DNA of 64,000 bases from Pseudobdellovibrionaceae bacterium (GCA_023898385.1 CP060220.1:10370-74369), one strand, 5' to 3'; shown: positions 2,947 through 62,400, counted from the stretch's first letter. Numbers and translations: made by a program. Notes: generated from the letters alone by a model not told the origin.

Positions 2947-3884
2947 GTGCCTTGTTGAAATATCTATTCGGTTTGACGTTGATCTTCGCGGTGGTTCCGG
3001 CGAGTGCCTATGATTTAAGAGTTGTACCAGAGAACAATCGGGCCCTCGTGGATTTGATGAAAGCGATTCTGGTAAAGAACGCTGAGCTTTCAATAAAACA
3101 AATGCTTGGCGAGGAAGCTGGGTTAAGTCGTGAAAATTTATTGAAGGTGATAGAGCAACTTAAGAAAGTAAAGCAAGAGGTTCAGAGCAAGCAACTGCAA
3201 AAAGACGCTGATGGTGAGAAAGATGCGTCCTCTGATCAAGTTCAACTGATTGATGGATTGATAGAGCAGTATGAAAACCTGCTTGAATCTGAACAATGGA
3301 ATGCCGAAATCTACGCCGCCGACGCCCATAAAAGACTTATTGAGGCGTTAATGTACGAGCCATTTATGCCACTGCTGCATTTCAATTTGGCGCAAGTCTA
3401 TTCGGTGAATGGTGAAAGTGAAAAGGCATTAAATGAGTACAACACGGTCATAAATGACCCCCAAACAAAACTAGAGTTAAAGTTTTTAGCCCGGTTCAAT
3501 GCCGGCAATGAGGCCAGTCGGGCTGGTAAAATAGACCTTGCGCTTGAACATTTTCAGGCAGCGCTTGCGATTAACCCTGAGTCAATCGAGGTGAAGACCA
3601 ATATTGAACTCCTGTGGCGGCAAAATCAAGGCGGCGGTGGTGGCGGTGGTAAGTCCAAAGAGGGGGAAGGTGATGGAGAAGGCGAAGGTTCTGAAAATAA
3701 AGAACCTGACGAAAATACTCAATACACAAATCAACCCCAACAAAATCGTCCGTTTAACAGTAAAGAATTAACAAAAAACGACGTGCGAAAAATTTTGGAT
3801 GAACTTCTAGATCAGGAACAAGAAATTAGAGCCAAAGAATACGACAAACAACCAAAGGAGAGACCTCGTGGCAAAGATTGGTAG
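2943..3884 (+). CDS. TPR protein, BatC-like
   Basis: Signal peptide, TPR-like helices (FNAGNEASRAGKIDLALEHFQAALAINP), Gly/Glu/Gln-rich linker and C-terminal ...RPRGKDW, typical of BatC. Confidence 0.75.
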   Translation: MSALLKYLFGLTLIFAVVPASAYDLRVVPENNRALVDLMKAILVKNAELSIKQMLGEEAGLSRENLLKVIEQLKKVKQEVQSKQLQKDADGEKDASSDQVQLIDGLIEQYENLLESEQWNAEIYAADAHKRLIEALMYEPFMPLLHFNLAQVYSVNGESEKALNEYNTVINDPQTKLELKFLARFNAGNEASRAGKIDLALEHFQAALAINPESIEVKTNIELLWRQNQGGGGGGGKSKEGEGDGEGEGSENKEPDENTQYTNQPQQNRPFNSKELTKNDVRKILDELLDQEQEIRAKEYDKQPKERPRGKDW

Positions 3885-11103: not shown

Positions 11104-11230
11104 CCCAAAACCTGGCGAGCTAGTTTCATGAAAGTCTGGGCCTCTATGCTTTCGGGATAACTTTCTACCACAGGAATGCCGGCTTCGCCGGTGAGTCCAA
11201 TGTTGGGGTTAAATGGAATTTGCGCCAACT
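11104..11230 (-). pseudogene. Duplicated 3' fragment of mrp/apbC (direct repeat of 12973-13099)
   Basis: 127 bp with 5 mismatches. Encodes LAQIPFNPNIGLTGEAGIPVVESYPESIEAQTFMKLARQVLG, then L-stop just beyond the repeat. Confidence 0.92.
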
Positions 11231-12958: not shown

Positions 12959-12977
12959 TTTAGGACCTGGAACCCAA
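12959..12977 (+). repeat. Third (partial) REP copy, forming the last codons of mrp
   Basis: tttaggacctggaacccaa is identical to 11065-11083. Confidence 0.85.
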
Positions 12978-13745
12978 TACCTGGCGAGCTAGTTTCATGA
13001 AAGCCTGGGCCTCTATGCTTTCGGGGTAACTTTCTACCACGGGCATGCCGGCTTCGCCGGTGAGTCCAATGTTGGGGTTAAATGGAATTTGCGCCAACTT
13101 CTCAATGCCTTTGCTATCAAGGTATTGATCGAGTTCACCTTTTGGAAACAAGGCTATGGGGTCGCCACCGCCGGGGGGTTGAAAATAGGCCATGTTCTCT
13201 ACCACGCCGAGATTTTTTACATTTGTTTTTTCAAACATATCGATGGATTTTTTAGCATCGATGAGTGCGATATTTTGCGGTGTGCAGACGGTGACAGCTC
13301 CATCCACCGGAACTTTTTGGGCCACAGTGAGAGCGATGTCGCCGGTGCCTGGAGGCAAATCAATGATGAGAATGTCCAAATCCCCCCAGTCCACATCGCG
13401 AAAAAACTGGTCCATGGCTTTAAACAGCATGGGTCCCCGCCAAATCACAGCGGAGTCTTCATCTACCAGAAAGCCCATGCTCATCAGCTTCACTCCATGC
13501 CTTACCAAAGGCTGGATTTTTTGATTCTCATCCACCACGGGACGTTGATGAAGGGCCCCAAATAGCCGCGGCATGCTAGGACCATAAAGATCAGCATCCA
13601 GCAGCCCCACCTTTTGTCCTAATTTTTTTAATCCCAGGGCCAAATTGGCGGCCACAGTGCTTTTGCCCACGCCACCCTTGCCTGAGCCAACGGCAATAAT
13701 GCGCTTGATACCAGCAATGGGAGTTTGTTGATCAAATGGGTTCAT
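12960..13745 (-). CDS. mrp: Mrp/ApbC (NBP35 family) Fe-S carrier ATPase
   Basis: GSGKGGVGKST, DADLYGPS, WRGPM, DLPPGTGD, GVVENM. Confidence 0.92.
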   Translation of the reverse strand: MNPFDQQTPIAGIKRIIAVGSGKGGVGKSTVAANLALGLKKLGQKVGLLDADLYGPSMPRLFGALHQRPVVDENQKIQPLVRHGVKLMSMGFLVDEDSAVIWRGPMLFKAMDQFFRDVDWGDLDILIIDLPPGTGDIALTVAQKVPVDGAVTVCTPQNIALIDAKKSIDMFEKTNVKNLGVVENMAYFQPPGGGDPIALFPKGELDQYLDSKGIEKLAQIPFNPNIGLTGEAGMPVVESYPESIEAQAFMKLARQVLGSRS

Positions 13746-28920: not shown

Positions 28921-31143
28921 ATGAGGCGGTTGATTCTTTGGGTAGTGGTTGGATTTTTTGTTCTTCTGATCACTGGCATTGTTGGTCTGGCTCTTTACAT
29001 TAGTAGTGAGGCGGGGTCTGAGAGACTGTTTGCCGAGTTGGTCTCTGTTGTTCAGCAAAAAACGGGTGTTCATATTAAGTCTCAGCGGCCGCGGCTGAGT
29101 TTGTTTGGTGGGATTGAAGTGAACAACTTCGCCGTCACCCACGAGGTTTCGGGGCAAATGAAGTTGGAGGCTTTTGCTGAGCGCCTTTATTTGCGTATTC
29201 AGCCCCTTTCGGTGTTTCGATCTTCGGTGGTTGTGGAATCTCTGGAAGCCGATGCTCTCACTTTAGATGTTTCGCTCTTTTCCTCAGAAAAAACGGCTGC
29301 TGATGAAGCGCCTGGCGGTGAGCCATTTCCCTTGGCCGTTGTCCTCAAAAATTTAGATTTAAATCGTATGAATATTACGGCAACACTCAATGTGGATGAT
29401 CCGCAATCTCATTGGGAGATCAAGAATGCCAAGGTCAATGGATCTCTTACTTTTTTAGGTCAAAGACCAGTCACCCAAGGCTGGTCGGGAACACTCTTGT
29501 TTGCTGCCGACGGCATTGCATCGTCATTGATTCAATTTCGGCCTCGACAAGTAAATCTAGAAATCATCTCTGTGGAAGACACACATCGGGTTTCTTTTGA
29601 TGTGGCTTTAAACGATGTTCATTCCTTTGGGTATGGGCTCAATGATGTTTCGGCTTCGGGGCAGGTCCTTCTCGATGAAACTTGGCCAGCTGAGGCCAAG
29701 GTGGCGGCCAGGTCTGTTCGCGGACCTCATTTGGTGGGCGAAATTGATTTTTCAACCGATATGAAAATGACTTGGGCACCCTTGGCTAAAAAACTAGATG
29801 CTCAGGGAAGCCTTTTTGTTGATGGTCACACCGCCATTGAAAATCTCAACCTTAAGGCTGATTTAAGTACAAAAACTTTTAATGCCAGTGCCTCGATGAG
29901 TGTTTATCTCAAGGATGACTGGGTTCGGCGATTTCAGCCCACACACGATTTACCCCTCTCTGTGGATAAGGTTTTGCCTACGCCGGTGGAACTACAGTTA
30001 AGTGTGCAGCAGAATGCAGTGACATCAACTTTGGGTGTTGTCGGAGGGGCTCAGTTTTCAAAAGTGGTGGTCCCGCAAAAGGGCTTGGTCACCGATGTGA
30101 AGTGGTCATTTCAAGGAGATGCGGAGTTTTCAAAGGATGGTTCGCCAAAGCTTTTCAACTTTGATTCCACCGTGGCTCACAAAGAAACGGCATTAATTGC
30201 AAAAGGTCTTGTTGTTTGGGAGCGTGGGGATCTGCAGGGGCAAGGTGACCTCACCTTAGCTTTCCCCGAGTTTTATGAAGTGATGGATGGCCACAAAATC
30301 AAAGGTGGAGTTCATATCCCGTGGACGGTTCGGCTCGAATCGAAACACGAATTATTTTTAGAAACGCAAGTGGTTTTAGGTGGTTTGCAGTTGCAAAGTA
30401 AAGACTACGGCATCGATGGACTGAATGGCGTGGTTCGAGTGAGCGAACATTTAAAAATAAAACCATCAGGCGTGGAGCTGGCCTCCACGGTGGTGCCGAA
30501 CCCCTTTTCTCGAGTGGAGTATGGGCGTGTTGAGCCGCTTATTGAAAATGTTGTGCCCATTGTGATTGATCGAGTGCGTTGGCAGAAGCATGAGTTTGGC
30601 CCATTTATTGGCTACTTTTCTTTAGTGCAGAACTTGTTTGCTATACACGAGTTTGACCTCGAAGTGGGTGATGGAGAATTGGTGGGCGAGTTTTACTTTG
30701 ATGGCAGGTCCAACCAGCAGCAGATTGGCCTTTTAACAAGAGCCATTGAAATTGATTTGAACCGTCTATTTCCTCGCTTTGCCACCGCAAAAAATCAAAA
30801 CGACAATCAAATTAGTGGACGTGCGGGATTGGTCGTCGATATTGCCCAAAAAAACTTAGAGGGTCGAGCTGACATCACTCAAATTGGCGCCCCCCCTTTA
30901 GTCACAATGATGAACGTGTTAGACCCCGAGTTTGAGGATGAACAATTTAATAAAGCCAGATACGCTTTGTCTTTAGCGTATCCAAGTTTAGTCATGACGG
31001 ATTTTCGCCAAGGCTATATGAATATGGATGTTCAACTGTCAGGGGCCCTTAACCACCGTTTTAAATTTAGAGGCATTCCCATGGGAACATTGTTTTCGCA
31101 GATAGCCTTTGGTGACAAAAACAATAAAAAGGAGACGCCATGA
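28921..31143 (+). CDS. AsmA/YdbH-like inner-membrane-anchored beta-rich protein
   Basis: Single N-terminal TM followed by a long beta-strand-rich region; RBS before ATG 28921. Family assignment is by pattern only. Confidence 0.55.
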   Translation: MRRLILWVVVGFFVLLITGIVGLALYISSEAGSERLFAELVSVVQQKTGVHIKSQRPRLSLFGGIEVNNFAVTHEVSGQMKLEAFAERLYLRIQPLSVFRSSVVVESLEADALTLDVSLFSSEKTAADEAPGGEPFPLAVVLKNLDLNRMNITATLNVDDPQSHWEIKNAKVNGSLTFLGQRPVTQGWSGTLLFAADGIASSLIQFRPRQVNLEIISVEDTHRVSFDVALNDVHSFGYGLNDVSASGQVLLDETWPAEAKVAARSVRGPHLVGEIDFSTDMKMTWAPLAKKLDAQGSLFVDGHTAIENLNLKADLSTKTFNASASMSVYLKDDWVRRFQPTHDLPLSVDKVLPTPVELQLSVQQNAVTSTLGVVGGAQFSKVVVPQKGLVTDVKWSFQGDAEFSKDGSPKLFNFDSTVAHKETALIAKGLVVWERGDLQGQGDLTLAFPEFYEVMDGHKIKGGVHIPWTVRLESKHELFLETQVVLGGLQLQSKDYGIDGLNGVVRVSEHLKIKPSGVELASTVVPNPFSRVEYGRVEPLIENVVPIVIDRVRWQKHEFGPFIGYFSLVQNLFAIHEFDLEVGDGELVGEFYFDGRSNQQQIGLLTRAIEIDLNRLFPRFATAKNQNDNQISGRAGLVVDIAQKNLEGRADITQIGAPPLVTMMNVLDPEFEDEQFNKARYALSLAYPSLVMTDFRQGYMNMDVQLSGALNHRFKFRGIPMGTLFSQIAFGDKNNKKETP

Positions 31144-31406
31144 GGTGTTTGAAGACTTCAATATCTATAGCAATAATCATTGGCATGACTGTGCTGTCAG
31201 CATGTGCCCCTAAAATCTATGTGATGGATCGCCCCACTGTGATGGAGGAAGAAGCGTCAGGATCCTGGCCTAATTTCACCAAAGACCTAAAGAAAAACGC
31301 GTTGAGCAAGGGGCCCACGTTTTTTCCAAAAGAAAAAGAGAACAACAAAAAAGCCCGCGTTTATAACATACTCAATGGCGACCTTACCTCAAAAAATCAG
31401 GAGTAA
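31140..31406 (+). CDS. Small lipoprotein (YnbE/DUF1318-like)
   Basis: Lipobox LSAC; overlaps the upstream stop. Confidence 0.6.
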   Translation: MRCLKTSISIAIIIGMTVLSACAPKIYVMDRPTVMEEEASGSWPNFTKDLKKNALSKGPTFFPKEKENNKKARVYNILNGDLTSKNQE

Positions 31407-31412
31407 TAGCCA

Positions 31413-34400
31413 ATGTTTCGATTTCAAAAACAGCTTGGATTGTTTCTCGTCTTTGTTTTGGCAACTGTAGCCCTAAATTGTTCAGCTTCTGCTGAAACAG
31501 AAGCCGAGCGCCACACTCGCTTGTTGCTTCGTCTTTTGCCCCTCAATAAGATCACTGTGGGCCCCTATGACAACTACCAAGGCTCGTTTGTGAAAGGTGG
31601 CCAACAGCTCCTTTTTTCTCGAAAGGTCGATCTGGCACCGCGAATATACAAATTGGATTTAAACACAGGTAAAGAGACGCCTCTTCTTGATTTAGCTTTT
31701 GACTCTAAAGATCCTCACGTCAGTAGCACGGGCGACAAGATTGTTTTTGTGTATTTTAAAAATCGAGCGAGGGGTCAGGTCTGCGTCAAGTCGATTGATT
31801 CCGCAGATGCTGAATCTTGTTTAGATCACAGCACCAAAGAGCCCGCATTCCCTGTATGGGTGGGTGAACATCAGGTGGCCTTTATTCTTCGTGATCTGGC
31901 AAAGCGAAAAAGCGAAGTGGTGCTCTGGGATTTAAAGGCGCAAAATTCAAGGGTGGTGGCCCAGGGCCATATTTCATCTTTGACCTGGTCTGAATCTCAA
32001 CAAAAAATCCTTTACACATCGGATGAAGGGATAGTGGTTTCTGATGTTTCGGGTGTGTCAAAATATGATCTCAAGTTGGATTTGCCAGGAATGCCCGGTT
32101 TTCTCTCTGCGGGCGAGGACGGATATGTTTACTTCAGTCACTACCTCAGTGACACCAATAACGATCAAATTGTTGACGCCAACGACAATGCCGTCGTATT
32201 CAGACTGCCTTTGGTTGAGGCCAAAGGTGGATCTCGGTTGGTGTTTCCGGAGCCATTGACATCAGTCGAGTACAACTGCAGTTTTCCGCAAGCGGCACGG
32301 CAGTCTTTGCTGGTGACCTGTGCGTTTGAGGGAACTCTCGATATCTATGAACTTCCCCATGCGGGAATGGTGCCATCAAGTTGGGACCACCAAATTCTTG
32401 AGAATGCCAGAAAGACTAGTCGCACCTATGCCGAACGGCTATTTTTAACTCAATCGTTAATATTTCGAAATGGGACTTTTTCTGCAGAGAAGAGTCTTCA
32501 GCAGTTGATGAGCAATCACTTGCTTGCAGAGGATGGATCGGCCACGCGATATTATCTAAAACGATTGATCGAGTTATATCCAAAGACTTCGTCTCTTTAC
32601 GCTCTTCTTGATGTCTATGTTCAAGGGCTGCAGTTTAAAAAGAAAGAAACTGTGGACCCACTTTCTCGGGCCTTCTCGCGAGAAGTGAGCCAATTCTTAA
32701 CAAAACTGGGTGCAATAAAAGGGGTGAATAAACAGAAAAAATTAGTGCATGCCGTATTTGACCTATGGAGCGGCAATGGGACGCGGGCCGCAGCCGTGTT
32801 GAAAGATCAAGAGACTTTAAAAGTCTCTAGCACTATTGACGGGTACTTGTTGTTTCAACTTATTGAAACTTACTCTGGCCGCCGTGGTGCGGTCGCACGA
32901 GGGGTCGACTCAGGATATTTAGCGCTCATCACCACATCAGATTTACCAGAAGAGAGCCAGCTCTTCTATGCCCACCGACTTTTGACGTACATCCAAAAAA
33001 GTGAGCCTGATCTTAAAAAACGAAAGACCTTAGTGGCGCGCTTTCAAAAAAAGTGTGAGCCTGGATCCTCGGTCGAGACTCTGATGCAGGCCGAAGTGGT
33101 TTCGTTAAATATTGTTTTGACTTTGGGCTTACAAGATAAGCGAAAAGTGTACAACGACCTAGACAAGTTGATGAGCCAAACCCGGGACAACTATTACTTA
33201 CGAAAAGCTTTATATGTAAGAGCTATAGCCACATTGGTTGAAGCGGACGAGTATGATATTGCCGGTTACGTCGCCACCAATTGGTTGAAGTACACAAAGC
33301 CAGTGGATACAGAATTTAGCTACGCAAAGACCCAATACATCTATTCAGTTTTTGACGAAGCCTATTCAAGCTATGGAAGTCAGAATTATCTTTTGGCCTC
33401 CAATCACTTCTTGGCAGGGCTTCGCCTAACCGATGACTTAGAGGCTCATTTCGGGTATATTCAATCGCTTTTGAAGCTAAAAAAACGACAAGAAATTGAC
33501 AAACAATATGATAATTTAAAAAAGCGGTCGTTCATCGGCGACAACATAACTTATGTAGAAACGCTCTTAGAGCTACTTGATGGTGAGGAGCGGGGCACTT
33601 TAGAATCCAAGGAAGTCAGGCGGGCCGTTGATAGGCTCAATGGTTTAACTGTTGAAAACTTCTCGCCCGTATTACACCTGACCATCGGCGCCCTTTATGT
33701 TTGGCTTTTAGACAGCGAAAGTAAAGGCCTAGATTTCTCGCAAGAAGATCTGGACAAGGCTCATAAGCATTTGATGTTGGCCTTTGATTTGGGAAGAAAC
33801 AATCAACGACTTCGAGCTTCGGCTTTGATAGACCTCGGTTTATTGCATCAGAGGGTGCGAAATTATTCTTTGTCGGCCCGATTTTTTGCAGATCGAAAAA
33901 AATTTGGATTTACAAGTGACGAGGAGAGGCTTGCGTTTTCATGGCTATACAGTCGGACCCTTTATTTATCGAACAATGCCAGTGGAGCCGCTGCAGAGCT
34001 TGCGGAATTGTTGTCTACCCAGCCAAAGGCGGAGGGCGATGGTTATTTGTTTGAGCGTCTGGCTTTTTATCAACAAGCCAGCGAACAATGCAAACAGTCC
34101 ATTGCCAACTATGACAAGGCTTTTGCAAAACTCTTAAAGTTAGCCGATGATCAACACGAAATGAAGATGCACCTAGGGCGTGGAGTTTGTTATTTTCGTG
34201 AAGAAAAGAAAAAGCCTGCAAAAGAAGATTTCTTAAAGGTAGTTGAGATCTCAAAAACATTGGTGAGTGAGAAGCCCACAGGCGATCGACCCTTGCCATT
34301 TAGGCCAGAGCGCCAACAGTTGTTGGCTTTAGGATATTTGGCCCAATTGAGTCAGGGCGCTGAAAGTGCAGGTTACCTGGAAGAGCGAGCTCAGTTGTTG

Positions 34401-34910
34401 GACTTAGTGGGTGATCAAATCAACTCATTTGCTATGAAAGAAGAATCCCTTTTGGGTTTCAAAGTAAAAAACAACCTTCAGCTTGCTGAAAAAAGGCTCG
34501 AAAGCGGGCGCAACGAAGGTGCCAACAGGTATTTGGTTTTGGCCCTGCGCGATTCTTGGCGTCTTGTTGGGGATTTAGAGCAGCCGCTCAGTGTGGTGGC
34601 ATTGAATGCTGTTGAAGCCTATTTGTTGCTTGCTGCTACGAAAAATTATGAAAGGTCGGGCGACGGTCACAAGTTGGCAGGCCAATTAACGTCGACGATT
34701 CAGGAGGCGTTAGTGAAGGTGCAAAAAACTCAACAGCAGCCCATTTGGGCCTTTAGGCAAACGAAGCTGGCTTTGTTGTGGGCAAAATACGAAGGGCGCA
34801 ATTTAGACCAAGAGCTGACATTGCCGCAGGCGGTGTTTTTAAAGCAACAAAGCCCTGAACGTTGGCAACAGCTCAAAGAATTATCTCAGTTGTTAGCGGC
34901 TCCACTTTGA
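31413..34910 (+). CDS. Large exported protein: TolB-like propeller plus TPR/helical region
   Basis: Signal peptide; PD40-like repeats (DPHVSSTGDKIVF, FPVWVGEHQVAF) followed by long helical repeats. Confidence 0.75.
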   Translation: MFRFQKQLGLFLVFVLATVALNCSASAETEAERHTRLLLRLLPLNKITVGPYDNYQGSFVKGGQQLLFSRKVDLAPRIYKLDLNTGKETPLLDLAFDSKDPHVSSTGDKIVFVYFKNRARGQVCVKSIDSADAESCLDHSTKEPAFPVWVGEHQVAFILRDLAKRKSEVVLWDLKAQNSRVVAQGHISSLTWSESQQKILYTSDEGIVVSDVSGVSKYDLKLDLPGMPGFLSAGEDGYVYFSHYLSDTNNDQIVDANDNAVVFRLPLVEAKGGSRLVFPEPLTSVEYNCSFPQAARQSLLVTCAFEGTLDIYELPHAGMVPSSWDHQILENARKTSRTYAERLFLTQSLIFRNGTFSAEKSLQQLMSNHLLAEDGSATRYYLKRLIELYPKTSSLYALLDVYVQGLQFKKKETVDPLSRAFSREVSQFLTKLGAIKGVNKQKKLVHAVFDLWSGNGTRAAAVLKDQETLKVSSTIDGYLLFQLIETYSGRRGAVARGVDSGYLALITTSDLPEESQLFYAHRLLTYIQKSEPDLKKRKTLVARFQKKCEPGSSVETLMQAEVVSLNIVLTLGLQDKRKVYNDLDKLMSQTRDNYYLRKALYVRAIATLVEADEYDIAGYVATNWLKYTKPVDTEFSYAKTQYIYSVFDEAYSSYGSQNYLLASNHFLAGLRLTDDLEAHFGYIQSLLKLKKRQEIDKQYDNLKKRSFIGDNITYVETLLELLDGEERGTLESKEVRRAVDRLNGLTVENFSPVLHLTIGALYVWLLDSESKGLDFSQEDLDKAHKHLMLAFDLGRNNQRLRASALIDLGLLHQRVRNYSLSARFFADRKKFGFTSDEERLAFSWLYSRTLYLSNNASGAAAELAELLSTQPKAEGDGYLFERLAFYQQASEQCKQSIANYDKAFAKLLKLADDQHEMKMHLGRGVCYFREEKKKPAKEDFLKVVEISKTLVSEKPTGDRPLPFRPERQQLLALGYLAQLSQGAESAGYLEERAQLLDLVGDQINSFAMKEESLLGFKVKNNLQLAEKRLESGRNEGANRYLVLALRDSWRLVGDLEQPLSVVALNAVEAYLLLAATKNYERSGDGHKLAGQLTSTIQEALVKVQKTQQQPIWAFRQTKLALLWAKYEGRNLDQELTLPQAVFLKQQSPERWQQLKELSQLLAAPL

Positions 34911-34977
34911 ATCCACTGTTCAAGCGCGGCTTGCTCACTGGTGCTGAGATTTACAACGCCATTGATGGGGGTGTTGA
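34830..34977 (+). repeat. Left 148-bp direct repeat bounding island 2
   Basis: Matches 39232-39379 with 3 mismatches. Confidence 0.93.
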
Positions 34978-35183
34978 AGCGAAATATACTCGCAGGAATT
35001 GCCAAAATCTAAATGGCCATGAACTGTTTCGGTCCGACTTTTCTGATTCTGGAGTTAACAATTTTGCTCTTGGTTTATGAAAGCACCTTTCGACTCTGCT
35101 GTTGGGAGCGTTCAGCTCGGGTCTTTTGGCCTGGCTTGATCTAAGAATTTGATATATTTGTTCAGAGAGGTTCACACTCAACT

Positions 35184-35211
35184 GTTAAGTCAACCGGTCG
35201 GTCTACTTAAC
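35184..35211. promoter_or_regulatory. Imperfect 28-bp palindrome resembling a TetR-family operator
   Basis: gttaagtcaaccggtcggtctacttaac is self-complementary at 22/28 positions. Confidence 0.4.
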
Positions 35212-35273
35212 TCCCCGTTATCGTTTGTGTTTTTTTTTTGGTTGCAAACAATTCTAATAACCTTTGCGCCATC

Positions 35274-36492
35274 TGTAGACTGCGGTTGATGGTGTCAGTG
35301 ACTTAGGCTGCCTTCATGGTTGTCTCACTTTGGGTATCGGCAGCCAATAATTTTTCTTTAGCCCCGGGTTTTAGCACTTGAGGGTACTGCAAGAGGTACT
35401 CGTTAGCAGACTTCCATCCGAGAGCTTTTCGGAGCCGCCAAGAGTTTTTCCATTGGCAATACTGTTCGAGGTATTCATTAAGCTGTTCGATGTTTTGCGG
35501 TCTTGCTCGATGGAACAACTCTTCATCGTCCATGCGGTGTGAACGCTCTACAAGCCCGTTAAGCTCTTTTTCTCCTGGAGGTATGAGTCTGTGCCTGATG
35601 CCGTGTTCATCGCATAGTTCATCCAAAATATGCGGCAAAGGATCGTCGATTCGTGAGACAAATTTATTCGTAAATTCCACGCCATTGTCTGTCTGAGTGC
35701 TGGTTATCCAAAAAGGCACTGCTCTTAGTAGTTCAATCATAAAGCGTTCAGTCTCCCAGTGACCATAACCTTCATAGGCCCTCTTAAACTCCCACCTCGA
35801 TGCGTGATCAACGAAGTTATAGACGTAACACTTCTTGCCGTTTTCAAGGAGCGTTGTTTGCCAATTAACATCGATCTGCGTGTGCACTCCTGGCAACTCT
35901 ACCTTCACAACGGTGGTGTGGCTAGACGCCGGCTTTGCACGCCTCTTAGAGCCCACAAGGCCCGCGTTCTTCAAAAACCGATGGATACGATACAGTGACA
36001 GCTCCACTCCAAGGTAACGTTTGAGGTGGGCTTGTATCACCTCAGCGCCCCAACCACAGAGTTTGCGCCATCGCCTGATGTGATAAGCCGTCCAGCCAGT
36101 GATGTCCTGTGCTTGTCGCCCTGGTGCCTTTCTTGGCGTTAGTTTTCTGTGTCCACCCTCGAGGTAACTCTTTCTCCAGCGATAAACAGTACGGCCAGAT
36201 TTACCGATTTCCAGACCCACAAGTTCATAGTCTAAGTCCGAAAGGTTGCCAGAATGTTCCCTTTTAGCTAGCTCTATCAACGCAAGTAGTCTCAAAGTGA
36301 GAATCTTATCTTTTTTTCGAAATTTCTTGGCTTCTCTTCGCAGTTTATCTAAATTAAGACGCATTGCTAACTCCTTGTTCTTCTTGGTGTTTCTTAATTT
36401 GAGACTTTAAATTTCACCAAGAAGACTTGGAGTTTTTCAAGTAAAATCAACGTTTCCCGCCATTTCACTGACAAAATCAACCGAAGCCTAAA
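35274..36492 (-). mobile_element. IS481-family insertion sequence (1219 bp)
   Basis: 28-bp imperfect IRs (tgtagactgcggttgatggtgtcagtga 35274-35301; tcactgacaaaatcaaccgaagcctaaa 36465-36492); direct repeat acctttgcgccatc at 35260-35273 and 36493-36506. Confidence 0.9.
35303..36364 (-). CDS. IS481-family DDE transposase
   Basis: N-terminal HTH (RTVYRWRKSY); D (TQIDV), D (QTDNGVEF), E (NGLVERSHR). Confidence 0.9.
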   Translation of the reverse strand: MRLNLDKLRREAKKFRKKDKILTLRLLALIELAKREHSGNLSDLDYELVGLEIGKSGRTVYRWRKSYLEGGHRKLTPRKAPGRQAQDITGWTAYHIRRWRKLCGWGAEVIQAHLKRYLGVELSLYRIHRFLKNAGLVGSKRRAKPASSHTTVVKVELPGVHTQIDVNWQTTLLENGKKCYVYNFVDHASRWEFKRAYEGYGHWETERFMIELLRAVPFWITSTQTDNGVEFTNKFVSRIDDPLPHILDELCDEHGIRHRLIPPGEKELNGLVERSHRMDDEELFHRARPQNIEQLNEYLEQYCQWKNSWRLRKALGWKSANEYLLQYPQVLKPGAKEKLLAADTQSETTMKAA

Positions 36493-36510
36493 ACCTTTGC
36501 GCCATCATCC

Positions 36511-36537
36511 TCAAGATTTTGCTAGACGATCCGATAG
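36511..36537 (+). promoter_or_regulatory. FliA/sigma28-like promoter
   Basis: TCAA-N15-TCCGATAG, 37 bp upstream of ATG 36574. Confidence 0.55.
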
Positions 36538-36573
36538 ATAGTGAAGGCTTTTTCCATTTTAGAGGACAATAGA

Positions 36574-38361
36574 ATGCGAGCAGCTACAACCACATTGATA
36601 CAGGCGACCTTGCGGGCATTGACCGGCCTGACAGCTCTCCCTCTGCTGTTTGGCTGTCAACTTGCTAACAACGAAATCAATGGCAGCATTAAGTCCCCGC
36701 CTCAGACCCCCGGAAGCCCAAGTCCAGTTGTTCCTCAATTAAGCTACTCCGGGGTACCTGATTACTTTGTTGCAGGTCAAAATATTGCATCTTTAACACC
36801 AACAACAAACGTTGTTAGCGGAGGGATCTATAGTGTTTCCCCGCCATTGCCTGCAGGCCTAGTATTAAATGAAGTCTCCGGTGCAATCTCAGGCGCTCCA
36901 ACGAATGCATTTTCGCCAACAACATTCTCTCTCACATTGACTCACGATGGACAAACAGTAACTGACTCTATCGAGTTGGAAGCAGGCCTTTTATTTTTAG
37001 TCAATACTGTCAACGATACCAGCGACATTAACCCAGGCGACGAAATTTGCGGTGATTTTTCTGGTGACTGTTCCGTCCGTGCAGCATTTGAGGAGGGGGC
37101 GGCGCTTTCTGATATTTTGGTTGTGGTCGATGTTCCCGCGGGCAACTACGACTTGCCATCCAATCCTCTCACCATTAGCTCTCGAGTGATAATGAATGGT
37201 GCCGGACCCAGCCAAACGATCTTCGACGCCAACCCTGATGCGTCTCCCATTGAACATGTCTTCATTATTGATGCCGTGGCGGAAGCCACCCTTAGAGGTT
37301 TTGCCGCGGTCAATGCCAATATAGTCAATGGCACTAACTTCTTAGGAATATTATATTTGGGATATGGAGGGGGCATCTATAGTCAAGCCGACACTCTGAA
37401 TTTAGAAAACTGCGATGTCTCTGGACATCGTGACACGCCAGGTACTCTAACGACAACCATGGGCTTAGGAATTTATTCTGCTGGATCATATCTTAACGTT
37501 GATAACTGCACAATTGACGACAATGTGTCGTCGTTGTCCGCAGGAGTCGGGTTCGCAAATGGAGGAGCAGGCATTGCTCATTTCGGAATCACCCACATCA
37601 GAAACTCTGTGATCTCGAACAACACCATGCTCAATGCCAACGACTCGACAGGGGGAGGTTTATGGTTAGATGCGGCAACAATTGAGGACTCCCAGATATT
37701 TGGTAATCGGGCAAGACTACATGGCGCTGGGATTAATGCCTCTAGTTTAACTTTGATTAATTCGCAAGTTTTTCTCAATGGCGGCAGTGGCATCGTGTTT
37801 GGGGCTGGCATACGATTAGGGAGTGGCGCCGTAAAAAATAGTGCTGTCTATGATAATTTTGGTGGCGATGCTGAAATTTACGGGGTCGATGGAACCATCG
37901 AGGTCAATAACTCCACCGTTTTTTCAAACAATACGCCCTTTGCCATAATTTCTGATGATGCCCATTTTCAAATACTTCACAGCACATTGGTTACCGATGT
38001 GAGCGTTGCACTAAACACCTCTGGGACAGGTTCTGGTACACATACACTGGGCCATTCCATTGTACATGCTATTTCAGGGGACAGTTGTGGCAATGCTTCA
38101 AGAGTCACGTCTACAGGTTATAACATTATTAACGATTTGACCTGCAACTTTTCTAGTGTTGGCGATGTGGAAAATATTGATCCTGAAGTGGGAGTCATTG
38201 CCAATAACGGCGGACCCACGTCCACCATGGCCATCAGTGCCACTAGCCCGGCTCGCAATGCCATTCCAGCTAGTAATTGCAACTTGTCGGTTGATCAAAG
38301 AGGCGAACCTCGTCCGATGGGAGGCGCATGCGACATTGGTGCGTTTGAATACGCTGAGTAG
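36574..38361 (+). CDS. Surface lipoprotein: putative Ig domain, CSLREA-type domain, beta-helix, choice-of-anchor-Q-like C-terminus
   Basis: Lipobox LFGC; PPLPAGLVLNEVSGAISGAP; VNTVNDTSD...GDCSVRAAFEE; DQRGEPRPMGGACDIGAFE. Confidence 0.8.
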   Translation: MRAATTTLIQATLRALTGLTALPLLFGCQLANNEINGSIKSPPQTPGSPSPVVPQLSYSGVPDYFVAGQNIASLTPTTNVVSGGIYSVSPPLPAGLVLNEVSGAISGAPTNAFSPTTFSLTLTHDGQTVTDSIELEAGLLFLVNTVNDTSDINPGDEICGDFSGDCSVRAAFEEGAALSDILVVVDVPAGNYDLPSNPLTISSRVIMNGAGPSQTIFDANPDASPIEHVFIIDAVAEATLRGFAAVNANIVNGTNFLGILYLGYGGGIYSQADTLNLENCDVSGHRDTPGTLTTTMGLGIYSAGSYLNVDNCTIDDNVSSLSAGVGFANGGAGIAHFGITHIRNSVISNNTMLNANDSTGGGLWLDAATIEDSQIFGNRARLHGAGINASSLTLINSQVFLNGGSGIVFGAGIRLGSGAVKNSAVYDNFGGDAEIYGVDGTIEVNNSTVFSNNTPFAIISDDAHFQILHSTLVTDVSVALNTSGTGSGTHTLGHSIVHAISGDSCGNASRVTSTGYNIINDLTCNFSSVGDVENIDPEVGVIANNGGPTSTMAISATSPARNAIPASNCNLSVDQRGEPRPMGGACDIGAFEYAE

Positions 38362-38562
38362 ATCCACGACTGACTTTTTAAACAGCTTGGCACCGCACTG
38401 TCGCCGCAAAAGGAAACCAGGTGCCGTGGTGCCCCCTGGCGGGCGATCTTCGTTCCGCTATTATGGGTTATTTTAAAAAGCCAAGTAGTTTAAATTATTT
38501 TAATATTTCTATTTACTGGAGGACATCTTTTGGCGTTTCCGAGCCTGTTCTCTAGCTCGAAG

Positions 38563-38591
38563 TTGACATATATGTGCAATGTATGTATAAT
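38563..38591 (+). promoter_or_regulatory. Consensus sigma70 promoter for a probably leaderless TA transcript
   Basis: TTGACA-N17-TATAAT, with ATG 7 nt after the -10 box; palindrome ACATATATGT (38566-38575) overlaps the -35. Confidence 0.85.
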
Positions 38592-38597
38592 GTAATA

Positions 38598-38834
38598 ATG
38601 CCGACGATCTTTGTTATTGGCCCATTTAAGATCATCATAAATACAAAAGATCACCGGCCAGCCCATGTGCACTGTGTTGGACCAGGTGTTTTTGTGATTG
38701 TTGAAATTGTGACCCAAGAAGTGATTCGTAATAAAGGGGTTTCTCCAAAGGATATTAAACGGCTGCAATTGTTTATTGAAGGAAACAAGGATGTCTTGAT
38801 GAACGAATGGAGGCATTACCATGAAGAAGAATAA
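38598..38834 (+). CDS. DUF4160-like putative toxin
   Basis: MPTIFVIGPFKIII..KDHRPAHVH...W pattern. Confidence 0.75.
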   Translation: MPTIFVIGPFKIIINTKDHRPAHVHCVGPGVFVIVEIVTQEVIRNKGVSPKDIKRLQLFIEGNKDVLMNEWRHYHEEE

Positions 38835-39063
38835 AGAATCTAAAAGTCTTTTAACAGATAAAGACATGAAGCCTGAAAATGTGAAAGCCAACATCACCAT
38901 TCGCATTTCTGGTGAGTTGTTAAACGCTTACCGCAAAGAGGCCGAAAAGCTTGGAATTGGTTATCAGACTTTGATGCAAATTAAGCTTAAAGAAGGACTG
39001 GATCATTCTCTTGAACGGCGGCTTGAAAAACTTGAAAAGGCCTTGAAAACAAAGGCTGGCTAA
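38821..39063 (+). CDS. BrnA/CopG-like ribbon-helix-helix antitoxin
   Basis: NITIRISGELLNAYRKEAEKLGIGYQTLMQIKL; overlaps the toxin stop. Confidence 0.8.
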   Translation: MKKNKESKSLLTDKDMKPENVKANITIRISGELLNAYRKEAEKLGIGYQTLMQIKLKEGLDHSLERRLEKLEKALKTKAG

Positions 39064-39172
39064 TGCCTTCGGCCCGACTTATCTTATTCGGGACTTAACA
39101 CTTTTGTTCTAGACTTATCGTGGCAGCTCTCAACTCTACCCGTGGGAGCGTTCAGCTAGGGTTTTGGCTTTC

Positions 39173-39241
39173 TTACTTAATTTCATCGAGCGATCTCCTT
39201 AAGCGTTTCTTGCTTGTTTCGATCTCCTTCTGCGGTGTTTT
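39173..39241 (-). pseudogene. C-terminal remnant of a RelE/Gp49-like toxin
   Basis: Reads KTPQKEIETSKKRLRRSLDEIK*; truncated at the island direct repeat. Confidence 0.4.
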
Positions 39242-39379
39242 TAAAGCAACAAAGCCCTGAGCGTTGGCAAGAGCTCAAAGAATTATCTCAGTTGTTAGCG
39301 GCTCCACTTTGAATCCACTGTTCAAGCGCGGCTTGCTCACTGGTGCTGAGATTTACAACGCCATTGATGTGGGTGTTGA
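39232..39379 (+). repeat. Right 148-bp direct repeat bounding island 2
   Basis: Matches 34830-34977 with 3 mismatches. Confidence 0.93.
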
Positions 39380-39785
39380 TCGGAGTGCAACCGCTGACGC
39401 CCCCAAAGTTGTCCTCATAGTACTGACTGCTTACAACACCCATTAAATACGATTGGCTTGGGCTGCCGGCGGCCACATTAGACAACGAACCACAAGTGCC
39501 TGAATTCGATGCCCCGCCCACGGATTGAAATAAACTGAAATAGCCAGTGCTGGTGGAAGAAAAATCCAGCGGGGCGCCTGCCACGTACCCCGATCCGCCA
39601 GGTTGGTGACAGCTGGCGCATTCAGTAGAAAACAACTTCGAATACAGCGAAGAAAACGTGGGCTCCACATCTCCGGCCGTATTTAATGGGTCCGAGCAGC
39701 GGGCTAGTAAGAGCGTAAAAGCCAAGCCAAAAAAACCTTTAACTAAAAGCCAGCCATAATTTTGCAAAGAATGAGCGTTAGGCAA
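39288..39785 (-). CDS. Putative lipoprotein with one c-type heme motif
   Basis: Hydrophobic signal ending LARC; CASCH; start placed at TTG after GAGGAGGGG. Confidence 0.65.
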   Translation of the reverse strand: MPNAHSLQNYGWLLVKGFFGLAFTLLLARCSDPLNTAGDVEPTFSSLYSKLFSTECASCHQPGGSGYVAGAPLDFSSTSTGYFSLFQSVGGASNSGTCGSLSNVAAGSPSQSYLMGVVSSQYYEDNFGGVSGCTPINTHINGVVNLSTSEQAALEQWIQSGAANN

Positions 39786-39877
39786 AGACCCCTCCTCAAT
39801 GGGATATATCAATACAGGTTTACTTATTTCACTATGACGGTGCGTGCAATCCAAGAATTTTGTGTTAGAATTTCGTT

Positions 39878-56400: not shown

Positions 56401-59400
56401 CACTGTGAACTATTCTATAAGTAATGGGACGACGACCGCGGCCGACTATGCGACACCTGCCAACGATTCGGATGCGACTCCTGCCGATGGCATATTAACG
56501 CTTTCATCTGGAGCAACAAGCGGCACCGTAACGATTGCGACAACAACAGATGCCAATATGGAGATGGATGAGTACCTCATTGTCGTGCTTTCTGTCAATT
56601 CCCATGGAACCTTCGTGGATGACACTGGCCGCGGTGTTATCGAAAACGACGATGACAATGGGTACATTTGGACCGGTGATGCGGGTGATGGCGATTTCCA
56701 TAATGGGGCTAACTGGAGTAACGGAGTCACCGCGCCTGGAAATACCAATGTGGTATTATTTGATGATGTCTGTGCCGATGTGCCAAGCAATTGTGATGTG
56801 CTAGTTTCAAATGGCAATGTGGATGTCCAGGGTTTTTGGATCAACGAATCTTACGCGGGCACGATCACCCAAGGAGCAGGTCGCACGATAAAAGTGGGAA
56901 ATTCTTATTTTGAACAAAGAGGCGGCACTTTCGTGGGGGGTGATTCCACTATTGATGTGGATCGGTTTTACATGAAAGCCGGTACATTTATCAGTACCAC
57001 TGGTGAGCTTCGAGTGGGGCAAGTGAGCGTCGCTGGCGGCGGGCAGTTAAGTGTCACCGGTGGCGCCTTTGACAACAACTCTGGAACCGTTCGAATGGAT
57101 GGTCAAATTTGGGATGTGAACCCAGTTCGGGTTGGTGAATTGACTGCACCGTCTGGTTTAACACTCAACAATCTTATTATTGATGCTCATGATACGGAGA
57201 CTGGCAGCGGGGCGGATGATGCCTACGTCGTAATTGCGAATGGCACAACAATTCATGTTGATGGCGACCTCACAATTCGCGATGGATTCATTGGGGGCGT
57301 CAATATGGGCATTTACCCTGGCAACATCTATTTAAAGGGAAATTTTTATCAATTGGACGTTAGTTCCAGTATACGGTCTGAAGTTGTTCAACTGGGTTAT
57401 GATATAGTTCCACCCATTGTTTACTTTGATAGCGGTGGGTCGCAAGAATATTCAGGAACGTCAAATACTCGGGGTCCACGAATCACGGTGACAAATGGGT
57501 CAGTGGTAACACCTGCTGCAGGGACAACGGACGTTGGTTTCTCATCCTTTGCCCTTTTGAGTGGTTCATTTCAGGCTCCATCAGGAACGATGAAGTTGGG
57601 GTACAACACCAGTTCAGATGCAGATATGCTCAGTGGTTGGACCCATACGGGAGGTATTTTCGATCATAATTTTGGGACCATTAAATTTGATTCAAATGGA
57701 TACTTCAATAATCCCCGAAATGGCTGCACTGTGAACTCACCAAGTGGGACTACGTTTTACAATCTTCACATAGCGGTGAGGGATTATGCCTCCGACAGCG
57801 GCTACAATGGCGCTGAATTCGACTGGAGTGCAGCTTCCCCATTGACGGTCCTTAATGATCTTATCGTTACTGATGGCGTAGTAAAGGCCGGCGGCAGTTT
57901 CATAGTCGGTCGAGATGTGCGTTTAAACTATACAAATGCGCAAATCCACGCTGAAGGGTTTTCTGCGGGACTCACATTTAACGGTGCATCAGATGCAGCC
58001 ATCGAAGTTCAGTTGGGCGCTTCCGGTTTTAGTACATCATTAAATGTTGAAAAAGATAGTACGAGTACTACAACAATGCTGAGCGATATTAACCTGAGTA
58101 GCGCGGGTTTGGATCTCAATTTGGATTCAGGCACATTGGATATCAATGGTCACAACCTAACAGTCAACGACCAACTCAATGTGGGCGATGGTGTTGGCGC
58201 CGCAAGTAGTGCCCGCATTTTAAAAGATTGCAATACCATCACGGCTGGCACCCAAACAGTGAATCCCACTGACGGTGAAATTGTAGGTTCAGGAAGCAAT
58301 CCGAATATCACCATCTCGGATGCCACAGTGTTAGAAGGTGGCAACCTCGTATTTAACGTCACACTCTCTGAAGGTGTGTGCGGAAGTGCAACAAATATCA
58401 CCTTCACCACCGATAATGGCACGGCAGTGGCTGGCAGCGACTACACGGATAATGACAGCACACTCGTCATCGCTGCCGGCGATACCAGTGGCACCATTAC
58501 AGTGGTTACCGCCGACGATGGCACTGGCGTGGCTGGTACAATGGAGTTTGATGAGACTCTTTATATTAACCTCACGGGCACAGACCAAGGTGCAATTACT
58601 GACAGCCAAGGGATTGGTACGATTCTCAATGAGGACGACAACGGCTACATTTGGATGGGTCGTACTGATAGTGACTGGAATACGGGCGCCAACTGGTCAG
58701 GCAGCGCCGTGCCTCCCACCGACGGCAGTGTGGTGGTGGCCTTCACCGGTGCCTGTCAGGCTGAAGCAACTTGCAATGCGGTGACAGCTGGCAATGTGGA
58801 TGTGAAAGGCATGTGGCTTTATGGTTCTTACGTCGGCACTATCACGCAAAGTCCTGGAAATACTGTTGATGTGGGTACGGATCGGTGGATCCAAAACTCG
58901 GGAATATTTAGCGGTGGTAGCAGCCCCATCCAAATCGCCGAGTATGTCTTGAGTGGTGGTGTATTTACAAGCACCTCGGGCTCTTTGACGGTGGGTTATG
59001 ACCTGCCGCTTAATACCAGCAACGCAGACGGATTCACCGTTTCAGGTGGTACTTTCAATCATAATTCAGGAACGCTCGAATTCAAAAATCAGGCCCTCAT
59101 TAATGATGCCACTTGGCGTCCTCAGGTAGTTGTAGATGTTTCAGGCAGCCTGGAGCTAAACGATGTCGTGGTAGATATAAATAATTCGGTTGGCCAATTT
59201 TCTCACGCTTCTGTCGACATTGCGGTGGGGAATACTCTTGTAGTCAACGGTGATCTTACAATCCACAATGGATATTTGCGTGAAGGTCAAATTGACTTAA
59301 AAGGCGATTTGATACTGAACTGTGCAAGTGGTCCTGGTGTCAATTTGTGTGCTGAAGGGGGGACCACGGTCATTACAATGACCGGTGGCTCACCTCAAGA

Positions 59401-62400
59401 ATATACACACCAAGTAGGCGCTTTTGCTCCATTTCTGGTCATCAATTCTAGTTCCACAGTAGGCCCTTCCGCCGGAACTTCGACTCTTGGCGTTTTTGAG
59501 TTTACGCTTCAGTCTGGCGGCTTTACAGCTCCAACAGGCCTGATGGAAGTCGGCTATAAGATGCCGAATACAACTGCAAATACAAATGGATTTACAGTTT
59601 CTGGTGGAACCTACAATCATAACGGCGGCACGCTAGAGTTTTTAGGTGAGATGTGGAATGCGGGGTCAACGGTGCGTCCAGTTACAGTTGTCGATGTCCC
59701 AGGATCACTCACATTAAATGATTTAGTGGTCGACATTAAAGACACATCGGGCGCAAACAGCAATGTTTCAGTTGAAATTGCAGCAGGTGACACTTTAGTT
59801 GTTCAAGGCGACTTGACCATAAATGATGGGCAACTGATAGGACAGACTATTGATCTAAAAGGAAATCTCATCATTAATTGTGCCGACGGCTTTGATGGTA
59901 ATTCTTGTGCAGAGGGTGGCACCACAATCATTTTAATGACTGGTGCATCACCGCAGGAATACACACATGAGCCGGGTGGTTTTGTGCCAACATTACATAT
60001 CAATTCAACTTCGACAGTTTCTCCTGCTTTGGGCATAACATCACTAGGCGTGTGGAAGTTTGTTCTTCAGAGTGGGACTTTCAGCGCTCCTGCGGGGACA
60101 ATGCAAGTCGGTTACAGGATGAGCAATAATGCTTCAAATGCAGACGGTTTTACTGTTTTAGGTGGCACTTTTAATCACAGTTCAGGAACCTTGGAATTTT
60201 TGGGTAACGAGTGGTCGGGAAGTTCGATGGCGAGTGTCACTACAATTGATGTGGCAAGTTCATTGGATGTTTATAATTTAATTGTCAACGTTGCAGATAC
60301 ATCTGGTGATTTTGACGACGTTTCTGTAGATATCACTGCTGGTGACACGATTGTAGTCAACGGTGACTTGACCATTGAAAATGGTTATTTGAAAGATGGA
60401 GTCATCGATTTAAAGGGCAATCTACAAATAAATTGTGATGATGGTCCTTCAGGAAATCTTTGCGCCCAAGGAGGTACGACCGAACTACATTTTACAGGAC
60501 CTGGTGATCAGAATATTAGTATTGCTTCGAATGCCACTGCTCCCGGAGGTGTTTTTACGGTTTCAAAATCTTCTGGTGATGTTGTTCAATTGAGTTCCGT
60601 AAATTTAAGTGCTGCTGGCCAAGATCTTCTGATCTACGATGGCGATTGGAACATGGCAGGATATGACCTCACTGTTAATGATCAACTCAACGTGGGCGAT
60701 GGTGTTGGCGCCGCAAGTAGTGCCCGCATTTTAAAAGATTGCAATACCATCACGGCTGGCACCCAAACAGTGAATCCCACTGACGGTGAAATTGTAGGTT
60801 CCGGAAATAATCCAGATATCACCATCTCTGACGCCTCTGTGCTAGAGGGTGGCAACCTAGTATTTAATGTATCCTTAAGTGAAGGCGTTTGTGCAACCGA
60901 CTTTTCGGTGAATTACTCTATCAATGACGGTACTGCGACCACAGCGAACTCTGATTATGCTGTTCCGGCAACAGATTCTGATGCTGCTCCGAACGACGGT
61001 GTATTAACTCTATCGGGTGGTGCCACATCGGGCACGATCACTGTGGCGTCTACTGCAGATGCGACGATGGAGATTGATGAAAACATGACTGTGGTATTGG
61101 ACACTCCATCGCATGGCGCACTTACTGACAACACTGGCGTGGGAGTTATAGAAAACGATGATGACAACGGATATATTTGGACGGGCGATGCTGGCGATTC
61201 GAACTTTAGCAACGGCGCCAACTGGAGTAATGGAACACTCGCACCTGGGCCGGGCGATATTGTTTTATTTGATGATATTTGCAGTGATGTGCCGGCAAAC
61301 TGCGATGTGGAAACTACGGCTAGTGTGTCTATTACGGGAATAATGTTTAACAATGACTACCCTGGTACGTTTACGCAAAACAGTGGCCACCAGATATCTA
61401 CGATTAATCGTTGGCTGCAAGATGGTGGAACCTTTGTGGGCGGAGATTCTAATGTCACCGTTCAAAGTAGTTTCCAGTTGTTAAACGGAAGCTTTACCAG
61501 CACCTCTGCAACGCTTGCGGTAGACTACGGTACAAATCGGACTCACATATTTGGAAATACGGCCAATTTTACTCATAACAATGGAAAATTACGATTTTAT
61601 ACAAACAACTCCACGTCCGACAATGTGATTACATTAAATAGGAATATTGACTTATATGACTTGGAGTTTATCCGGACAAGCTCTGGTGGTTCCTATACTC
61701 ATTGGAATTTTAATAGCACAGGTGTTTTTAATGTAACAAACGATTTGTACTACACTCGAACATTAGCTGGGGGGCTGTCACTAACGGGAAGTTCCATTGA
61801 GGTTAAGGGCGACATATTTGCCGGTGGAGGGTATCATTCGGGGGCCCCTAAAATAACTACGGTAGTAAAATTAAACGGCACAGCAGACCAATACTATAAT
61901 TATACAAGTGGCGTATTTCCTCGCCTTAATATAGAGAAAGTTTCAGGGAGCGTTTTGCCAGAGGTCGGTACCACAGCCCTTGAGGTCACGAGTCTTCGGT
62001 TACTTCAGGGTACCTTTACCGCACCTACGGGCACATTGAGTATCTTCTCTCGCGATGGAAATCAGATTCAAATCGATGCGGGCACAACATTTAATCACAA
62101 TAACGGAAATCTCCGCTTACGTTTTGAGGGGGCCGGCGGGTCAACCGGTACAGTAAACTTAGCTTCGGATTTAAATCTTTACGACATGCAAGTTTCAAGA
62201 GGCAACTCCGGTACAGGCTCTCAGACTATTCAAATAAGCGGTGGAAATATCCATTTAATCGATGACTTGTTGTTAACCGCCCACACCGGTACCGGCCCTT
62301 TCAAGCTGAATGGCGGAAAAATCTTTGTGGGTGGCGATATGACTGTGGAAACACCGTATTCCGGAGGCTCAACACAAATTGAATTTGATGGGCCGGGCGA

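Follow-up and report, generated by a model that had tools for sequence, protein, structure and literature searches.

How accessory genes enter tightly packed bacterial genomes when no recombinase is at hand is still unexplained, and the question is raised by a locus of an uncultured Bdellovibrio-like bacterium from sludge. In the 64,000-nucleotide stretch of Pseudobdellovibrionaceae bacterium that we analysed (GCA_023898385.1, CP060220.1:10370-74369; hereafter the window, with positions counted from its first letter), a 4.25-kb block of accessory genes lies between two overlapping convergent genes and is bracketed by two copies of a 148-bp sequence. What is this repeat, and how did the block come to lie between the two genes? 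We regard it as probable that the block entered once, without a recombinase, by insertion with long target duplication, and that homologous recombination governed its later history.

The two copies of the repeat (Table 1) were compared by repeat search and alignment. They lie 4402 bp apart, are identical at 145 of 148 positions, and have sharp boundaries on both sides. BLAST finds exactly these two copies in the 3,330,855-bp single-contig genome (E ~1e-68 to 1e-73), therefore a chance resemblance is excluded. The intervening insert (34978-39231) measures 4254 bp, or 3021 bp without an IS481-family insertion sequence (IS) and its duplication, and its G+C content barely differs from that of the flanks. 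The plus-strand gene on the left ends at position 81 of the left copy, with its last 81 bp, stop codon included, inside the repeat, while the minus-strand gene on the right ends at position 57 of the right copy. A single copy of the repeat would therefore give the two genes an overlap of 25 bp. Each copy thus completes one gene and carries a relic of the other: positions 82-148 of the left copy (34911-34977) are a redundant remnant of the 3' end of the minus-strand, cytochrome-c-like gene, and positions 1-56 of the right copy are redundant too, forming together with positions 57-81 (39232-39312 in all) a relic of the 3' end of the plus-strand gene.

The three mismatches between the copies, which leave an identical core of 98 bp, are found at repeat positions 30 (34859/39261, A/G), 40 (34869/39271, C/G) and 139 (34968/39370, G/T). 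All three fall in redundant halves: the left copy has the G at 34968, which turns His into Pro in the frame of the cytochrome-c-like gene, and the right copy has the two bases at 39261 and 39271. The functional halves carry the allele of the empty site described below. Read in frame, one change is synonymous, one replaces Gln by Glu and one His by Pro. This placement fits relaxed selection after a true target duplication, and fits a Campbell crossover between positions 40 and 139 equally well. The repeat itself has no evident special structure: neither the repeat nor the island edges match a tRNA or another Rfam RNA (E <= 1), and the repeat folds no better than shuffled sequences (z = 0.27). 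A hexamer, GGTGTT, occurs near both ends of the 148 bp, possibly by chance; it does not suit a simple tandem-duplication joint.

The earlier note on this DNA had interpreted the repeat as a duplicated site, each copy completing one of the convergent genes, and had predicted that relatives would carry an empty site with an overlap of about 25 bp. An exact-protein look-up with the cytochrome-c-like product returned nine public contigs, which were aligned to the window, and the predicted site was indeed found. Three contigs (L020, L022 and L023) are empty: they align to window positions 40861-39232 and 34977-32888, the two segments having the 148 bp in common, so that a single repeat copy is present and the two genes overlap. 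Gene calls on L020 (1077-1574, plus strand; 1550-3571, minus strand) give the same 25-bp overlap. The empty-site contigs carry A, C and T at repeat positions 30, 40 and 139, which are the alleles of the functional halves of the left and right copies. L022 is a MEGAHIT contig assembled at k=141 and no 141-mer of an occupied genome has this combination, thus it is not a collapsed repeat. In L020, the left flank shows 30 differences from the present genome (1.5% divergence), and this contig therefore stems from a different strain. Together with the alignment and the BLAST result, the empty-site contigs confirm that the block is a genuine inserted island flanked by a 148-bp repeat with three mismatches.

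The occupied state was also found outside the present genome. In L017, a public contig from an NCBI metagenome-assembled genome (MAG), the island and its two repeat copies lie together on a single contig. Right joints identical to ours are present in L019 and L024, and L021 and L025 end within the repeat and carry the right-copy allele. In another contig, L018 (ENA ERZ27309371 k141_29080), the island has lost 29 bp and has additional changes beside the right joint. Moreover, twenty public activated-sludge, wastewater and other metagenome runs contain the stretch at a word share of at least 0.42. Eight runs, from eight studies dated 2015-2025, were examined as k=31 contigs, which break in the 98-bp identical core; their contigs cover parts of the stretch and, for most runs, cross the left and/or the right junction. 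No empty-site or excision junction is visible in these runs, where the break in the core would hide it. The joints are identical in every occupied contig that covers a joint, with L018 showing additional changes at the right one, which demonstrates that the island has a single origin.

The IS481-family element is a later, independent insertion. It is flanked by its own 13-bp target duplication (CCTTTGCGCCATC, 35261-35273 and 36494-36506). The element is absent from the island of L017 and from one contig of run X16, which has the same IS-less joint. As the earlier note had maintained, this element therefore did not make the island ends. Five further copies of it are present in the genome and every copy has a target duplication of 13-14 bp, which is unusually long. 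In a side observation, the IS end is followed after 13 nt by the IS start in a metagenome contig of run X10; it matches a tandem of one partial and one full copy near genome position 1078529-1079790.

Presence of the island varies within the population. Sample SAMN08389255 contains both states, the empty contig L020 and the island contig L047. Two left-flank haplotypes can be distinguished: h2 is common to the occupied L017 and the empty L020, and h1, that of the present genome, is shared by the empty L022 and L023. Each haplotype thus occurs with and without the island, so that presence is uncoupled from the flank, which implies homologous exchange or repeated loss. Separately, we observed that the two haplotypes, about 1.5% apart, are confined to 31104-33732 in the 1165-amino-acid gene, the rest of the locus being more than 99.9% identical between strains, a split that indicates recombination within this gene in the sludge population. 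Synteny with the nearest genomes compared, which belong to other genera, was of no help: their cytochrome-c homologues are 43% identical and stand in different neighbourhoods. No related locus was found in the genome contigs searched.

Table 1. Coordinates of the repeat copies, flanking genes, island features and further repeat pairs (window positions unless marked as genome positions).
Feature	Position	Strand	Description
Plus-strand flanking gene	31413-34910	+	1165 amino acids; weak TPR_12 match (Pfam); from the list of open reading frames
Left repeat copy (D1L)	34830-34977		supplies the functional 3' end of the plus-strand gene (positions 1-81)
MITE 5' fragment	34981-35129	+	element positions ~1-149, ~82% identity; starts 3 bp inside the left island edge
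IS481-family element	35274-36493	-	transposase reading frame 35303-36364; HTH_32, rve, rve_3 (Pfam)
Lipoprotein gene	36541-38361	+	LLFGC lipobox, weak He_PIG immunoglobulin-like match, beta-helix-like remainder
DUF4160 gene, putative toxin partner	38574-38834	+	83 amino acids from ATG at 38583; 14-bp overlap with next gene
CopG/BrnA-like antitoxin gene	38821-39063	+	80 amino acids
Internal MITE fragment, same family	39067-39161	+	element positions ~47-141, ~86% identity; both terminal repeats lost
Gp49/DUF891 (HigB-like) toxin relic	39151-39231	-	81 bp; cut mid-toxin exactly at the right island edge
Right repeat copy (D1R)	39232-39379		supplies the functional 3' end of the minus-strand gene (positions 57-148, 39288-39379)
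Minus-strand flanking gene	39288-39854	-	cytochrome-c-like exported protein or lipoprotein; borderline cytochrome c Pfam match, CASCH haem motif
Case B repeat	genome 3010206-3010299 / 3011540-3011633		94 bp, 98%, 2 mismatches
Case C repeat	genome 152154-152323 / 154048-154217		170 bp, 94%
Case J repeat	genome 3299460-3299690 / 3311609-3311839		231 bp, 98%, ~12 kb apart

The edges of the island, the nature of which had been missed in the earlier note, are a terminus of a miniature inverted-repeat transposable element (MITE) on the left and a truncated toxin gene on the right; they are no pair of element termini. The MITE belongs to a dispersed, non-coding family of about 460 bp that has no match in Rfam and is represented in the genome by many fragments and by at least eight near-full copies, 95-97% identical (a full copy is found at genome 3301481-3301944). 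Full copies are flanked by TA and end in terminal inverted repeats of 13-16 bp (GAAATTTACTCGC), features that mark the family as a non-autonomous element of the IS630/Tc1 type. The island edge lies 3 bp outside the MITE terminus, and the native site (GTTGA/TCGG, the slash marking the edge) lacks the TA that the family duplicates, thus this edge is not a clean MITE transposition. A second internal repeat of 98 bp (35028-35125 and 39068-39165) was considered as a further pair of island ends and discarded, since its copies are two fragments of this dispersed MITE.

At the right edge the toxin gene is cut in its middle. The relic is 94% identical to genome 2309670-2309750, where a Gp49/DUF891 toxin gene ends and its HTH_37 antitoxin gene starts, and the paralogous toxin continues with GCGTCGTCTTTTG where the repeat starts with GCGGTGTTTTTAA. 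GCG, the first three bases of the repeat, is a microhomology at this edge, and 10 of 13 bases match the continuing toxin paralog. In the L018 variant, the right copy starts with the 11 bases GCGGCGTCTTT, in which two extra substitutions both match the toxin paralog; from this comparison, the variant suggests that the original right joint may have lain within the microhomology patch. The 29-bp deletion of L018 took place between CGATCT repeats in the toxin relic, the variant region corresponding to window 39190-39245. We also noted that the intact Gp49/HTH_37 pair at 2.31 Mb has a MITE-end-like fragment 6 bp past the antitoxin stop.

The absence of an integrase from the island, claimed earlier from the sequence, was upheld by our searches. 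Neither a gene nor a relic of a tyrosine or serine recombinase is present in the island or in the whole window; the genome does encode nine tyrosine and two serine recombinases, all of them outside the window. The only mobility gene of the island is the IS481 transposase, which came with the secondary insertion, and no integrase-bearing occupant is seen at the locus in any of the nine public contigs. Ku was not found in the genome, therefore classical end joining was not the route.

All together, these results make it probable that the island entered once, by insertion with long target duplication. We infer that a linear piece of foreign but Bdellovibrio-like DNA, carrying the lipoprotein gene, the DUF4160/CopG-type pair, part of a Gp49/HTH pair and MITE debris, would have entered the 3' overlap of the two convergent genes by illegitimate recombination with the help of microhomology. 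The two joints would have been made 148 bp apart. Several routes can be envisaged and are not distinguished by the data: filling-in of a staggered break, a fragment bridging misaligned sister chromosomes, or a replication template switch out and back; each would leave the intervening 148 bp on both sides. Selection would then have kept the product, because only an insertion that duplicates the 25-bp overlap leaves both genes intact; retention of the duplication is thus explained, as any other insertion at such a convergent overlap would kill one of the genes. Afterwards the redundant halves of the copies and the edges of the cargo would have decayed, and the IS481-family element inserted later with its own 13-bp duplication. 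The island now behaves as a presence/absence allele, which would be moved between lineages or lost by homologous recombination in the flanking genes or between the 148-bp copies.

Several points weigh against this interpretation. The joining event itself is not observable, and given the absence of Ku the joining has to be attributed to alternative end joining or to replication. The left edge lies so close to a MITE terminus (3 bp) that a transposase-linked step, which has no place in this account, is possible. The pattern of mismatches is predicted equally by a Campbell-type circle carrying a diverged 148 bp and is no proof of decay. No donor locus was found for the cargo, the lipoprotein being met only in paralogs at 32-46% identity; nor was the cargo seen at other sites, the exact CopG protein occurring only at the present one. 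Finally, the published class of such insertions was set up from cases with restriction-modification genes, and the present island carries none.

That class, insertion with long target duplication, was described by Nobusato, Uchiyama, Ohashi & Kobayashi 2000 (Gene 259:99), cited in Furuta, Abe & Kobayashi 2010 (NAR 38:2428, PMC2853133). Its members have duplications longer than 30 bp (46 to ~420 bp in the published table), an empty site in a conspecific genome and no other mobile element; the repeats often extend across start or stop codons, and examples come from many phyla (PMC2853133). No mechanism has been established, and double-strand breakage has been suggested (PMC2853133). The present island has a 148-bp repeat, thus above 30 bp, a conspecific single-copy empty site, an insert below 20 kb that is no prophage or other large element, ends that no other mobile element explains, and a repeat that is unique and is not a tRNA or a multicopy sequence of the att (attachment site) type. 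Restriction-modification cargo, on which the 2010 survey screened and which is not a mechanistic property, is missing: searches with Pfam and PADLOC found no restriction-modification gene in the cargo and revealed instead the DUF4160, CopG-like antitoxin and lipoprotein genes. The island is like the published class in that repeat length varies between events and the cargo consists of selfish or addictive modules. It differs by its cargo, a toxin-antitoxin pair with a lipoprotein gene here and a candidate defence ATPase-nuclease in the sibling cases described below rather than restriction-modification genes, by its Bdellovibrio-like predator host, by a duplication across two convergent gene ends and by having one edge at a MITE terminus. 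It is therefore a new example of an already described and mechanistically unsolved type of insertion and not a new kind of element, and the novelty implied by the earlier note was overstated, the architecture having been published (PMC2853133).

Such insertions have been catalogued since 2000, mostly with restriction-modification genes and without a mechanism. The locus provides a cleanly resolved natural case outside restriction-modification cargo, with both joints, the empty site, a dated IS insertion and within-sample polymorphism, and can serve both as a worked example and in the study of the mechanism.

The island is not alone in its genome, a point that had also gone unnoticed. Self-comparison of the genome yielded about 12 unique direct-repeat pairs, 60-650 bp long and 1-15 kb apart. 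In one (case B, Table 1), a single gene of 392 amino acids, of the AAA_14-DUF4143 type, stands between folA and a convergent gene for a sigma-54 response regulator, the ends of which overlap by 4 bp. Its empty site exists as a public contig (L036), and both mismatches lie in the redundant folA relic; case B was thus verified as a second insertion with long target duplication. In case C, a 385-amino-acid paralogue of the case B gene lies between a FecR-domain gene and a convergent gene of 190 amino acids, with a 7-bp overlap and beside tRNA-His. Exact-protein look-ups gave no record of an empty site for case C, which is likely to be a third such insertion. Both cargo genes match the PADLOC candidate defence family PDC-S01 (AAA_14-DUF4143); a literature search for DUF4143 as a mobile gene found nothing relevant. 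No common motif was seen at the repeat boundaries of the present island and cases B and C. The insertion type has therefore recurred at least once more in this genome, with a candidate defence gene as cargo.

A further repeat pair, case J, has an interval holding several MITE copies and a DUF6036 nucleotidyltransferase gene, its left inner edge abutting a MITE terminus; an IS91-type Y2_Tnp gene follows the right copy.

Among the alternatives to a single illegitimate insertion, the one that survives best, although we hold it to be unlikely, is entry by Campbell-type integration, whereby a circle with one 148-bp copy, possibly excised in another strain, would have been taken up into a naive chromosome by a single RecA-dependent crossover. 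The left copy differs from the empty allele only at position 139 and the right copy only at 30 and 40, as a crossover between 40 and 139 would produce, and the mismatches of case B fit likewise. The sharp repeat boundaries and the occurrence of both flank haplotypes with and without the island agree with such a history too. Indeed, the locus resembles the integration of suicide plasmids in its order of homology, insert and homology and in being reversible by recombination between the repeats. Unlike that process, the locus comes with no known circle or replicon and no known origin for the 148 bp that would have been captured. Moreover, a circle accounts for the spread of the island but not for its origin, since one with the 148 bp placed between a truncated toxin gene and a MITE end presupposes an earlier repeat-cargo-repeat structure, and the donor-type allele (G, G, G) that it calls for occurs in none of the three empty contigs.

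A more far-reaching version of insertion with long target duplication is doubtful in our judgement. In this Ku-less lineage, such insertion could be a recurrent and mechanistically specific entry of addiction and defence genes (to date, toxin-antitoxin pairs and single-gene PDC-S01 ATPase-nucleases) into convergent 3' overlaps: a donor end would arise at the terminus of an IS630-type MITE, by transposase nicking or at a stalled fork, and a template switch would copy the cargo and re-enter 100-200 bp upstream. Were this true, three or more events in one genome, together with natural empty sites in public metagenomes, would make a mechanism unsolved for 25 years directly testable.

We regard as improbable that the island is a decayed integrative element, the tyrosine or serine integrase of which was lost or acted in trans, so that the 148 bp would be the attL/attR identity block that rebuilds both gene ends. 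Islands that restore gene 3' ends with long att repeats are well known (tRNA cases are discussed in PMC2853133), nine tyrosine recombinases are encoded elsewhere in the genome, and excision would give the observed empty site. As in integrase islands and prophages at gene or tRNA 3' ends, the repeat duplicates a gene 3' end, the target stays functional and the insert is strain-variable. Unlike them, the island has no integrase, tRNA or arm-type sites, and the lack of any recombinase gene or relic extends to the whole window. The truncated toxin gene and the truncated MITE abut the repeat, leaving no space for arm sites or int, and the integrase-bearing occupant that one would look for is absent from all nine locus contigs. 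The sibling inserts B and C, in turn, each consist of one gene, and their repeats differ in length (94 and 170 bp) and are unrelated in sequence.

An origin in two steps is very improbable. Either two independent insertions, 148 bp apart and in different chromosomes, would have recombined via MITE or IS sequences, or a first insertion at 34977/34978 would have broken the cytochrome-c-like gene, which was then repaired by import of the wild-type sequence, homologous recombination making one end and illegitimate joining the other. The homology could come from the abundant MITE and IS copies, a MITE terminus lies at the left edge just as at an inner edge of the case J pair, and the right edge resembles an illegitimate joint with microhomology. 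On the other side, no public contig of the locus has an intermediate allele with a single joint, the native site lacks the TA that the MITE family duplicates, the right edge is no mobile-element end, and two rare events would be needed, one of them deleterious. The likeness to an IS or composite transposon, with a target duplication around the insert and IS and MITE sequences inside, is limited in the same way: the target duplications made by the resident elements measure 13 bp (IS481-family) and 2 bp (TA, MITE), not 148 bp.

An assembly artefact, by misjoining or repeat collapse, which the earlier note had named as a possible refutation, has a negligible chance: the genome was obtained from a metagenome as one contig and the repeat interrupts short-read contigs, but the independent MAG contig L017 has both copies and the island, junction-crossing contigs come from most of the eight runs, and three mismatches tell the copies apart.

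Single insertion with long target duplication thus being the preferred account, some features of the genes involved can be added. The plus-strand flanking gene had been labelled TolB in the earlier note, a name that Pfam does not bear out, its weak TPR_12 match being the only one; the same gene is called, with an identical product, on L017. The minus-strand gene encodes 188 amino acids from a TTG start and 165 in public records. The lipoprotein has 606 amino acids from a GTG start, or 595 from the ATG at 36574 as in public records, with paralogs elsewhere in the genome at 32-37% identity and homologues in the family. Upstream of its gene a sigma28-like motif, CAAGATTT-N10/11-(T)CCGATAG, is visible; the earlier description of the gene as sigma28-promoted is unconfirmed.

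Two more direct repeats were seen in the window. The first, of 127 bp (11104-11230 and 12973-13099; 96% identity, 1.87 kb apart), brackets a LuxR/GerE-type regulator gene and two unknown open reading frames beside the 3' end of an Mrp/NUBPL-type ATPase gene, and may be another such insertion. The second, of 202 bp (58155-58356 and 60666-60867; 91% identity, 2.5 kb apart), has the look of coding modules that recur within a large repetitive protein, and not of the ends of an island.

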